A DNA stretch of 64,000 bases from Candidatus Hodarchaeota archaeon (GTDB lineage: Archaea > Asgardarchaeota > Lokiarchaeia > Sigyniarchaeales > SOKP01): assembly GCA_048887225.1 (NCBI GenBank), contig JBHLJY010000003.1:32001-96000 (forward strand), given 5' to 3'. Each line of letters starts with the position of its first letter. Positions within the stretch are counted from its first letter, which is position 1. Position numbers and translations under genes: made by a program. Of this stretch, positions 13,538 to 54,241 are shown piece after piece. The notes beneath the pieces are model-generated. The model did no database searches and had not been told where the DNA came from. It saw only the letters and a program-made list of their open reading frames with translations.

Positions 13538-14161
13538 TTAACTCTCTATAATAAAGATCTTTTCAAATACTTCAGGTAAGGCATCAACGATTTTTCGTCG
13601 CAGTGTTCGAGTGAAAATCAAGGCAACGACTGCACTTAAACCAAATTGAATTATCCCATTTAAGAAAAATTCAAATAGTGCTGCGGGGAATCCAAATAAT
13701 ATAAATTCATAAACAAAATAACCTAATACCATAATAAGTCCTCCAAATACCACCGCTATTATATCTCTATAACTGAATTTTGGATAATTTTTTCTAGGAT
13801 TCGCAATTACTCCGATAATAAATCCTTCTAAACCTTTAATAATTAAAGTTGCTGGAGCATAGATAGTATAACCTGTAATTATATCGGCCAAAGCAGAACC
13901 AACTCCTCCAGCGATTCCACCAATAACAGGCCCTAATAATAATCCTGTGATCATTACTCCTATATCTCCAATGTTAATAAATCCTTTTGTAGCAGGAATA
14001 GGAATCTGAATAACAATTGTTAACACACAAATTAAAGCACCAAAAATACCAATCATTGCAAGAGATACAGAATTCATTGGCAAAAAATATCCCATAAAAT
14101 CTTTTCCTTTAGATGGAATGTATCTTTTTTCTTTTTCTTCTCCTTTGCTTTCATTCTTCAT
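13538..14161 (-). CDS. ECF transporter S component
   Basis: IPIPATKGFINIGD...GGVGSALADI...APATLIIKGLEG, about 6 TM helices. Confidence 0.9.
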   Translation of the reverse strand: MKNESKGEEKEKRYIPSKGKDFMGYFLPMNSVSLAMIGIFGALICVLTIVIQIPIPATKGFINIGDIGVMITGLLLGPVIGGIAGGVGSALADIITGYTIYAPATLIIKGLEGFIIGVIANPRKNYPKFSYRDIIAVVFGGLIMVLGYFVYEFILFGFPAALFEFFLNGIIQFGLSAVVALIFTRTLRRKIVDALPEVFEKIFIIES

Positions 14162-27343: not shown

Positions 27344-28987
27344 TTATTTTAACTTAGCAAAAATTTTTTTATTTCTGTCGACTTCTTTGAGAATTCTTCT
27401 TCCTTCTTGATTAGATAAGGATAAATTAATATCACTACTTCTACTTAATGAACCTGTAAAAATAAGCTCATTTTCTGCAAAGACTTCAATGTTTTGACTC
27501 GCATATTGAGGATCTGCTTGAATTATAATTTTTTTTTTATCAATTGTAATGTCTAATTCAATCATTTTTTTCATTGATTTCTTCTTTTTATTCGGGAATT
27601 CTGAGAGTTTTTTCCCTCTCCTTGGTTTTATCGGGACTATTACTACATCTTGACCAAAAGAATAAATCTCATATTTTAATTGCCCAGTACCATAATCTCT
27701 AACATCAACAACGGGGCGCGCTAAGTCTTTATCTCTAAATCCATTTGGAACCTTTACTGTCATTTTCAGGACTAAAACATTGGTAATATCTCCTCCTTCT
27801 ATGAAAATAATTGTATCAATAATAGAAGGAAGCATTCCTAGTTCTACACGACCTATAAATCTCTGGATGGCATCTATAGCGGAGGAAGAATGAACCACTC
27901 CTATCATACCTACTCCTGATAAACGAAAATCAGCATAAATTTCAAAATCTTTTGTAGTTCTCACCTCGTCAAAAATAGTATAATCAGGTCTTACAAGCAG
28001 TAAAACGTCCGCAGAATTTTCTAGACTTCCTTCAAGCTTAGTATATTGTGTGATCTCTGGTTCAACTTGTAAATCTCTAACACTTTCTAATGTTTTTACT
28101 ACTTTGTCTCGTTCTAAATAATAATTTGCCAATGCTGCTGAAAACGTTGATTTTCCCGCACCTGGCGACCCCGCTACTAAAATACCTTCTGCCTTTTGTA
28201 ATCTTTCTCTTAATCTACTATCAATACTATAATCATTTAAAGTTAAGCTAACTAAAGGGCGGACTGCTGTAATTTCCACATCATTAGAAAAGGGAGGTCG
28301 AGTGATGACAATTCTAAATTCTCGTAATTGTGCAACTACGGCGCCTTCTTTTTCGATTTCGATAAAGGAACGTTCATCTTCTCTAACATTTTCTATTATT
28401 TCAAGAGCAATATCTTCTATTAATTTATTGTTAATAGACTCATGATCTACCTTTACTAAATGCCAATCACCTGGAGCACCTTTTTTCGCATAAGGGGGCA
28501 AACCTCGTTTAAGATGAACACTCATAGTTGTCTCATCAAAATAATCAAAAATCTTGAGCTTTAAAGATTCTTTTCTAAGGGGTGGCTTCTTTTCCCAAGC
28601 AAATAAAACTTCTAAACCCTCAAAAATACCTACATCCCCTTGAATTCTATCTGCCGTAATTAATATAGCATTGTTTTCTAAAGCAGATTTCCGTATTAAT
28701 GCATCGAGCTCCCCACCTGGACTCATTTTTATTTCCTCTCTCGTTGGGCGACTCCCTATGATTTTCAAATTAATTTTTTTCTCATTATGAAGTTCTCGTA
28801 ATTCTTTTAAGATATTAAGCCCGTAAAATCCTATCTCTTTTTGAATATTTGTACGATATTCAACTTCTGCAATAACAATATTAGAAATAATGATTTCTGG
28901 ATTGTCTCCCAATTCTCCATCCTCAATAAGACTTAGAATCTGACCATTAAAAATAACAGAAGTGTCACATGCAAATTTATCTGGCAT
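27344..28987 (-). CDS. PIN-domain ATPase (PINA/VapC-ATPase family)
   Basis: N-terminal PIN (DTSV, GELDALIR, TAD), GSPGAGKST, LLVRPDYTIFDE, VELGMLP, DLARPV. Confidence 0.9.
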   Translation of the reverse strand: MPDKFACDTSVIFNGQILSLIEDGELGDNPEIIISNIVIAEVEYRTNIQKEIGFYGLNILKELRELHNEKKINLKIIGSRPTREEIKMSPGGELDALIRKSALENNAILITADRIQGDVGIFEGLEVLFAWEKKPPLRKESLKLKIFDYFDETTMSVHLKRGLPPYAKKGAPGDWHLVKVDHESINNKLIEDIALEIIENVREDERSFIEIEKEGAVVAQLREFRIVITRPPFSNDVEITAVRPLVSLTLNDYSIDSRLRERLQKAEGILVAGSPGAGKSTFSAALANYYLERDKVVKTLESVRDLQVEPEITQYTKLEGSLENSADVLLLVRPDYTIFDEVRTTKDFEIYADFRLSGVGMIGVVHSSSAIDAIQRFIGRVELGMLPSIIDTIIFIEGGDITNVLVLKMTVKVPNGFRDKDLARPVVDVRDYGTGQLKYEIYSFGQDVVIVPIKPRRGKKLSEFPNKKKKSMKKMIELDITIDKKKIIIQADPQYASQNIEVFAENELIFTGSLSRSSDINLSLSNQEGRRILKEVDRNKKIFAKLK

Positions 28988-29582
28988 TAAAATCAGAATT
29001 GATATCTTTATTCATAATCTGAAAATTCTTCACATTGTAATAAATAGGCTTACTTAACCTGTCTACTGTTGCAACAATTAGTTCCTTGCGAGAACTCATG
29101 GCAACTCTAGAAATTTTGTCTAAATCTCTTAATTCTATCGGATCTCCCTCAAAAACGGGGAAAATTAAATATTTAGCGGAATCTTTTTCGTAATCTGCAC
29201 CTCTTTTATACACCCGAAATTCAATTCCATCTCCATATCCCGTACGAACTATATATCCTCTCTTTCTTAAATCCATATAGATTATGTACTTATGCCATAA
29301 TTTTTCGTCAAATTGAGTAAAATAAGTTAAAATATCTTCAAAATTGTATTGCTTCTTATTCTTATCATTATCTTCCCATATCAATATCCTATGCCTTTCA
29401 CTAAGGAGTAATACTTCAACAGAATCTAAAATTAAAATTTCTTTTCCTTCCCTATTTTTTTCAACATTCCCTATATATGAAATTTTGTAAAATTCTTCAA
29501 TTCCTGCAAGATCCGAAATCAATACTTTATCTTTCTCTATTGCGCCTTCTACTTGTATTTTCTCATCAGATTTTTCTGTCAT
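28977..29582 (-). CDS. endA: tRNA-splicing endonuclease subunit, probably non-catalytic/structural
   Basis: YMDLRKRGYIVRTG...FRVY..G...KYLI...SRKELIVA. Ser sits at the position of the catalytic His (KDSAKYL versus canonical KEHSxYL). Confidence 0.8.
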   Translation of the reverse strand: MTEKSDEKIQVEGAIEKDKVLISDLAGIEEFYKISYIGNVEKNREGKEILILDSVEVLLLSERHRILIWEDNDKNKKQYNFEDILTYFTQFDEKLWHKYIIYMDLRKRGYIVRTGYGDGIEFRVYKRGADYEKDSAKYLIFPVFEGDPIELRDLDKISRVAMSSRKELIVATVDRLSKPIYYNVKNFQIMNKDINSDFNAR

Positions 29583-53868: not shown

Positions 53869-54013
53869 TGGAGGGAGTGGGAAATCCGAGAATCGAGGAG
53901 ATCTCGAAAGTTTTCGAACCCACGAAGGCCTATGCCACTGGATCTTAAGTCCAGCACCTCTAATCGGTCTTGACCCATATCAAGAGAGTTTGACCAGGCT
54001 CGGTAATCCCTCC
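53869..54013 (-). tRNA. tRNA-Leu(UAA) with two 30-nt non-canonical introns (53960-53989 at 21/22; 53883-53912 at 59/60)
   Basis: Spliced 85-nt product GGAGGGA-TT-ACCGAGCCTGGTCAA^AGGT-G-CTGGA-CTTAAGA-TCCAG-TGGCATAGGCCTTC-GTGGG-TTCGAA^T-CCCAC-TCCCTCC-A. All stems pair, long variable arm, CCA not encoded. Confidence 0.92.
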
Positions 54014-54241
54014 AGCTAAATTATAACAGATCGAAATCATATAGCGAATTTACTTTCTTAGCTGTTAAAGACAATAATTTAAAATAAAAATTTAGATTTA
54101 AAATTTATCTTTGCTATAGATTTAAATAATACCAAGATATTAAAATAGTGATAACAAGATAAGTTTTATATAAACTGAGATTCATTTCTAATTTAACTAT
54201 TATAAAAAAATTATTATTTAGATTAAAACGAGGTTAGTATT

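Follow-up and report, generated by a model that had tools for sequence, protein, structure and literature searches.

tRNA genes with several introns are classic in the Thermoproteales. Multiple non-canonical BHB introns have reportedly been found in the tRNA genes of Thermoproteales/Crenarchaeota, and transposed intron families are said to occur in the Thermoproteales. Positions 22/23 and 59/60 are among the known non-canonical intron positions (Yoshihisa 2014, PMC4090602). Asgard archaea have since joined the organisms with heavily interrupted tRNA genes, as genomes have been described in which 92 to 95% of the tRNA genes are interrupted (Valentin-Alvarado 2024, PMC11291895). A preprint of October 2026 that surveyed 90 Asgard genomes described D-arm inserts that tRNAscan-SE overlooks, inserts in the T-arm that lie at canonical BHB motifs, gains that recurred, a pair of EndA paralogues, an absence of copy-paste families, and a median intron length of 22 to 23 nt (10.64898/2026.10.13.758758). 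The (alpha-beta)2 form of EndA with an L1 loop has been reported in Asgard archaea and linked to a broad substrate range (Kaneta 2018, PMC5829648).

In this study, we analyzed a 64,000-nt stretch of a Lokiarchaeia-type Asgard genome (the window) and a locus in it that very likely works as a tRNA-Leu(UAA) gene. No other such gene was found in this genome. We predict that its precursor transcript is ~145 nt long and contains two introns of 30 nt that are spliced by proteins. The two-intron design is already described for Asgard and Thermoproteales archaea, and the gene is ordinary for its lineage. It shares with the Thermoproteales/Crenarchaeota the non-canonical positions 22/23 and 59/60, the presence of several introns in one gene, the combination of strict and relaxed BHB motifs, and, as judged from sequence, an (alpha-beta)2 EndA with the Crenarchaea-specific loop. 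It differs from them in that the host is a mesophilic, AT-rich Asgard archaeon, and in that the Thermoproteales have transposed intron families whereas here there are none across tRNA types and intron lengths lie tightly at 27 to 31 nt. The likeness to the published Asgard cases extends to multi-intron tRNAs, D-arm inserts missed by annotators, canonical BHB motifs at the T-arm inserts, a pair of EndA paralogues bearing the L1 loop, introns gained or lost repeatedly, and the lack of copy-paste families. However, the published Asgard papers focus on Atabeyarchaeia, Freyarchaeia, and Jordiarchaeia, while the host here is Promethearchaeota/Lokiarchaeia-like; the Loki and Prometh lineages are never named in the text of the 2026 preprint (10.64898/2026.10.13.758758). 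The typical intron is also longer here (~30 nt, against medians of 22 to 23 nt in that survey), and the first intron, unlike the published Asgard cases, occurs in every family orthologue that was resolved, with part of its sequence conserved as well. As with the canonical archaeal intron at 37/38, EndA and RtcB would be the enzymes, and each 3-nt bulge would be cut behind its second base, but the central helix of the canonical intron lies on anticodon-loop bases 32 to 35, whereas the helices here lie on D-loop bases 18 to 20a and T-loop bases 54 to 57.

The interrupted gene and its predicted product

The earlier note had read the locus as a tRNA-Leu(UAA) gene with two 30-nt introns and none at 37/38, and had warned that standard scanners might miss or miscall it. 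These readings held up. Removal of both introns at the boundaries given in Table 1 leaves an 85-nt product that ARAGORN accepts as tRNA-Leu(taa) at up to 110 to 112% of its default threshold, so that cutting after the second bulge base, as had been proposed, restores the tRNA in silico by a strict call, and the anticodon loop CTTAAGA is uninterrupted. ARAGORN calls neither the precursor nor either of the single-intron forms. For the whole window, ARAGORN reports 0 tRNAs and Rfam nothing at the gathering score.

In the joined tRNA, the acceptor stem has 7 bp, the D-stem 3 bp with an additional G13-A22 pair, and the D-loop 11 nt (AGCCTGGTCAA). The anticodon stem and the T-stem are both 5 bp in length, the variable arm is long, the T-loop reads TTCGAAT, and the last base is A73, with no CCA encoded. 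With UAA in a 7-nt loop, the long variable arm, A73, and the 11-nt D-loop, it is a class II tRNA-Leu(UAA), and it aligns with intron-less Leu tRNAs without gaps. The gene is neither split nor permuted, since its three exons follow one another in order on a single strand, within 145 nt.

Table 1. Positions in the window of the tRNA-Leu(UAA) gene, its parts, a candidate promoter, and an endonuclease gene
Feature	Position	Strand	Remarks
pre-tRNA-Leu(UAA) gene, whole	53869..54013	minus	145 nt; A73 is the last base, CCA not encoded
Exon 1	53990..54013	minus	24 nt; acceptor 5' strand, U8-U9, D-stem 5' strand, D-loop through A21; based on alignment with intron-less Leu tRNAs
Intron 1	53960..53989	minus	30 nt; D-arm, 21/22 (or 22/23); hairpin TCTTGA/TCAAGA
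Intron 1 H' strand GATT	53962-53965	minus	pairs with exon GGTC 53992-53995 (G18 G19 U20 C20a)
Exon 2	53913..53959	minus	47 nt; D-stem 3' strand, anticodon arm CTGGA-CTTAAGA-TCCAG, long variable arm, T-stem 5' strand, T-loop bases 54-59
Intron 2	53883..53912	minus	30 nt; T-loop, 59/60; hairpin TCGAG/CTCGA
Intron 2 H' strand CGGA	53885-53888	minus	pairs with exon TTCG 53915-53918 (T54-G57); T-stem is the 5-bp outer helix
Exon 3	53869..53882	minus	14 nt; U60, T-stem 3' strand, acceptor 3' strand, A73
Candidate archaeal promoter, TATA-like CTATATGA	54037..54044	minus	centre ~28 nt upstream of mature 5' end; putative, read from the sequence
EndA paralogue, putative structural beta subunit	28977..29582	minus	201 aa; PF01974, 73.5 bits; without catalytic His

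An alignment that knows nothing of splicing finds the same interruptions. At a relaxed threshold, Infernal aligns positions 53870-54013 of the minus strand end to end with a tRNA-clan model (17.6 bits, below threshold) and places large insertions in the D-loop (43 positions against 10 consensus positions) and in the T-loop (32 against 2). Because this search uses no splicing motif, it gives motif-free support for the same two inserts. Such support weighs against a rival view, in which a GC-rich element resembles a tRNA only because two deletions were picked at will. Two deletions do offer many degrees of freedom, and the intron mode of ARAGORN yielded many spurious alternatives on other loci. 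Nevertheless, when 150 dinucleotide-preserving shuffles of the 145-nt core were put through the same procedure, with 0, 1, or 2 BHB candidates removed before strict ARAGORN, none gave a tRNA call (0/150). Together with the motif-free Infernal alignment and the existence of orthologues that lack intron 2, this result refutes a chance match, to which we assign a negligible probability.

The genome (3.27 Mb, 30.5% GC, 98% complete) has UUA as its commonest leucine codon, making up 51% of leucine codons and 48.7 per 1,000 codons in 1,390 long ORFs. The earlier note had asked whether another Leu(UAA) gene exists elsewhere in the genome. Neither an intact intron-less copy nor any other second gene was found in the 98%-complete draft by ARAGORN, Infernal, BLAST, our scan of those GC islands that lie outside long ORFs, or a search of the entire genome for UAA anticodon arms, and the locus is very probably the genome's only Leu(UAA) gene. 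Since UUA is the commonest leucine codon and no other gene for it was found, a working product is required. This requirement weighs against a decaying, disused tRNA pseudogene that acquired two insertions, a reading that would suit the silence of the standard scanners. The exons are, moreover, almost invariant across 13 genera with all stems intact, both inserts keep a spliceable geometry with compensatory change between genera, and the genome has about 18 further tRNA genes of the same build. We therefore regard a pseudogene as highly improbable and a functional gene as the better reading.

Splice motifs and their conservation among relatives

Both introns lie in BHB motifs, each built of a 4-bp central helix, a 3-nt bulge on either strand, and one or more flanking helices, but the two differ in quality. 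The motif of intron 2 is a strict, textbook BHB, in which the T-stem provides a 5-bp outer helix (GTGGG/CCCAC) next to the central helix TTCG/CGGA and the bulges AA|a and tt|T. It already forms in the unconstrained minimum-free-energy (MFE) structure of the whole precursor, alongside the acceptor, anticodon, and variable arms. The motif of intron 1 is a relaxed BHB. Its central helix GGTC/GATT contains two G-U pairs and is flanked by the bulges AA|a and ag|A, its outer helix, no longer than 2 bp, is in competition with the D-stem, and its hairpin lies 2 to 3 nt away from the central helix. This motif is not part of the MFE fold, and enforcing it costs 5.3 kcal/mol. Intron 1 and exon 2 begin with the same base, so that in Sprinzl numbering the intron can be placed between A21 and A22 or, equally well, at 22/23. 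The hairpin within each intron is more stable than its shuffled versions, clearly so for intron 2 (z = -4.35; 0/300 shuffles as stable) and also for intron 1 (z = -2.73; 0.7%). The central helices, the 3-nt bulges, and the individual hairpins are thus as the earlier note had described them; its word "relaxed" proved apt for intron 1, where the motif is truly weak.

This weakness could mean that only intron 2 is a normal EndA intron and that the D-arm insert is not removed via the proposed BHB, either because it has other boundaries, because it needs a helper or a prior step, or because it is retained as an enlarged D-loop. Exon GGTC can also pair perfectly with GACC in the intron, which is consistent with such a scenario, as is the finding that only about one-third of the D-arm insertions lie at canonical BHB boundaries in the 2026 preprint (10.64898/2026.10.13.758758). 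However, only the proposed cut yields the 11-nt D-loop of intron-less Leu tRNAs, and an intron-less Leu(UAA) gene of another Asgard family (L126), which came from a phylum-wide search, has a D-loop identical to the predicted spliced one. A retained 30-nt insert would also block the elbow contacts of G18 and G19 in the only decoder of UUA. The orthologues argue in the same direction. The H' strand of intron 1 is conserved as GATY, whereas the second base of the bulge is free to vary (g, t, c, or a), as expected for an unpaired base. In three orthologues (L010, L020, and L022), the 5' end of intron 1, GGTCTT, pairs with AAGACC beside H', which gives a contiguous 6-bp inner helix and hence a canonical motif with the same cut sites. 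Taken together, we consider it unlikely that the D-arm insert leaves by another route or stays in place, and we favor removal of both introns at their BHB motifs.

The conservation of the introns was followed by a BLAST search with the precursor among 60 other genomes of the same family, which found homologous loci in 50 of the 60 and in 12 of 13 genera; the gene structure was resolved for 26 loci with the pipeline used for the gene described here. Intron 1 occupies the same site in all resolved family orthologues, at a length of 28 to more than 60 nt. In addition to the H' strand, its hairpin (cttga...gggtcaag) and the acc or act that follows are conserved. The D-loop insert of six relatives (L009, L021, L024, L011, L012, and L032) measures 60 to 90 nt and has a common segment, aaggccaNaggtcgcttga. 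These longer inserts may be two adjacent or nested introns, a structure that the two-intron pipeline resolves poorly.

Intron 2 has had a different history. It is present in L005-L009 of the same genus and in L011, L012, L014, L020-L022, and L024, and it is absent from L010, from L015 of the same genus, and from L016-L019, L023, L025, and L028-L032, so that its presence varies within at least four genera. The orthologues that lack it read GGGTTCGAATCCCAC or an equivalent, which is exactly the predicted spliced T-loop junction. Where intron 2 is present in relatives, it is 28 to 30 nt long, or 36 nt in one relative of the same genus. Its hairpin sequences are unrelated between genera, except for a core, gatYtcctcga, that is common to two genera, and its H' strand pairs with TTCR in every case, always with T opposite A57. 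The orthologue without the 59/60 intron in the same genus (L015, in genome G049) carries a 30-nt insert in the variable arm instead; the second intron thus differs within one genus.

Sediment metagenomes of other studies also yield contigs with both introns in this arrangement and no joints, and no intron-less allele of the locus was seen among the contigs of four sequencing runs. The same architecture in contigs of other studies excludes an assembly artefact.

Introns and processing enzymes elsewhere in the genome

The gene is one of many of its kind in this genome. We scanned 106 non-coding GC islands outside long ORFs in the manner of SPLITS, allowing at most two BHB introns per gene and grading strict ARAGORN cloverleaf calls by threshold. 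The intron mode of ARAGORN, when run on variants spliced in silico, had proved too permissive, with many contradictory calls, and was replaced by these strict calls. The scan resolved 19 intron-bearing tRNA genes, Leu(UAA) included, 18 of which have non-canonical introns; this census is heuristic and incomplete, as Trp(CCA) and Thr(CGU), for instance, escaped it and were picked up by ARAGORN or Infernal alone. More than half of the tRNA introns (17/28) are 27 to 31 nt long. An intron of 29 to 30 nt at 59/60 recurs in six further genes, those for Met, Phe, Val-CAC, Lys-CUU, Asp, and a tRNA-Sec-like gene. With Infernal and RF00005, only 27 tRNAs are found in this 98%-complete genome.

The introns of different tRNA types do not form shared sequence families. 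Among 20 introns of 26 to 36 nt, the maximum pairwise identity (0.645) is below the mean shuffled maximum (0.687). An origin by copy-paste or transposition was therefore rejected, since the relatedness of the introns does not rise above that of shuffled controls.

Several other loci deserve mention in their own right. The tRNA-Sec-like gene (G000:C4:44501-44751) has the anticodon TCA, a 9-bp acceptor stem, and an encoded CCA, and it reaches an ARAGORN grade of 120 after removal of two 30-nt BHB introns, in the D-arm and the T-loop (C4:44571-44600 and C4:44659-44688). The gene for tRNA-Val(GAC) possibly has an intron at the junction of the acceptor and the D-arm: without 29 nt after base 9 (G000:C14:29696-29724), it scores 118, better than the intron-less call of ARAGORN or Infernal. 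On contig C6, the unit GGCGA-CTTAAAA-TCGCT recurs at positions 13752, 13821, and 13959 (G000), with spacings of 69 and 138 nt, and looks like a CRISPR-type array. In the tRNA-Leu(UAG) gene, the 29-nt D-arm intron (G000:C26:22874-22902) includes a direct copy of neighbouring exon sequence, TTGGTTAAAGGCGCG, which duplicates a D-loop segment, and GGTCAA is repeated in intron 1 of the Leu(UAA) gene. The copy and the repeat hint at an origin of introns by local exon duplication.

Genes for the enzymes expected to process such precursors are present. EndA occurs as two paralogues, each of 201 aa. In the paralogue located in the window, Ser replaces the catalytic His (KEHSVYLV of Methanocaldococcus jannaschii aligns with KDSAKYLI), which suggests a structural beta subunit. 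The other, on contig 1 (L001:1168-1773), is a putative alpha subunit; its residues 25-201 align with residues 11-186 of the catalytic alpha subunit of Aeropyrum pernix (3P1Z_B), gap-free through the Crenarchaea-specific loop, and it keeps both the lysine of the KPR motif in that loop and the catalytic His. The claim of the earlier note that a broad-specificity endonuclease would be needed is thus matched by the gene content: judged by alignment, an endonuclease of this type, with a loop-bearing alpha subunit and a His-less beta subunit, is encoded. The pair also agrees with the L1-loop (alpha-beta)2 EndA reported for Asgard archaea. An RtcB ligase is encoded on contig C13 (PF01139, 483.7 bits). 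The rtcB gene, too, seems to be interrupted, by a BHB-like insert of 29 nt (L003:1473-1501, equal to G000:C13:33458-33486), with the helix TTGG/CCAA and the bulges AT|a and aa|A; removal of this insert in silico restores the motif ISPGGVGY-DINCG, as checked by eye.

It is possible, though we hold this only tentatively, that both introns of the Leu(UAA) gene are instances of a lineage-wide BHB hairpin design of fixed size (~30 nt, made up of 1 nt, a hairpin core of 22 to 23 nt, the 4-nt H' strand, and 2 nt) that is found in many tRNA genes and in protein-coding genes such as rtcB, with 59/60 as a hot spot at which introns have been gained and lost repeatedly, even within genera. If this is true, the unrelated sequences of the inserts would point to an insertion mechanism that fixes length and shape, not sequence.

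A proposed splicing route and its implications

We propose that a heterotetrameric (alpha-beta)2 EndA, whose alpha subunit carries the loop lysine, would cut the precursor after the second base of each bulge, that RtcB would then join the three exons and probably circularize the introns, and that CCA would be added after splicing, given that the gene lacks it. Since both motifs are local, without overlap, no fixed order of removal should be required. In the elbow of a mature tRNA, G18 and G19 contact bases 55 and 56. The two central helices make use of elbow bases (G18-G19-U20-C20a and T54-R57), and the L-shape would thus be reached only after both introns are gone.

Our knowledge of archaeal tRNA splicing is not changed by this case itself. 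The gene adds a well-documented example of the Lokiarchaeia type to the published Asgard tRNA genes that are heavily interrupted. ARAGORN and Rfam both fail to see the only gene that decodes the commonest leucine codon, and such genomes therefore seem short of essential tRNAs unless intron-aware tools are used. The T-loop intron, which is present or absent even within genera, is a useful marker for the gain and loss of introns in this family.
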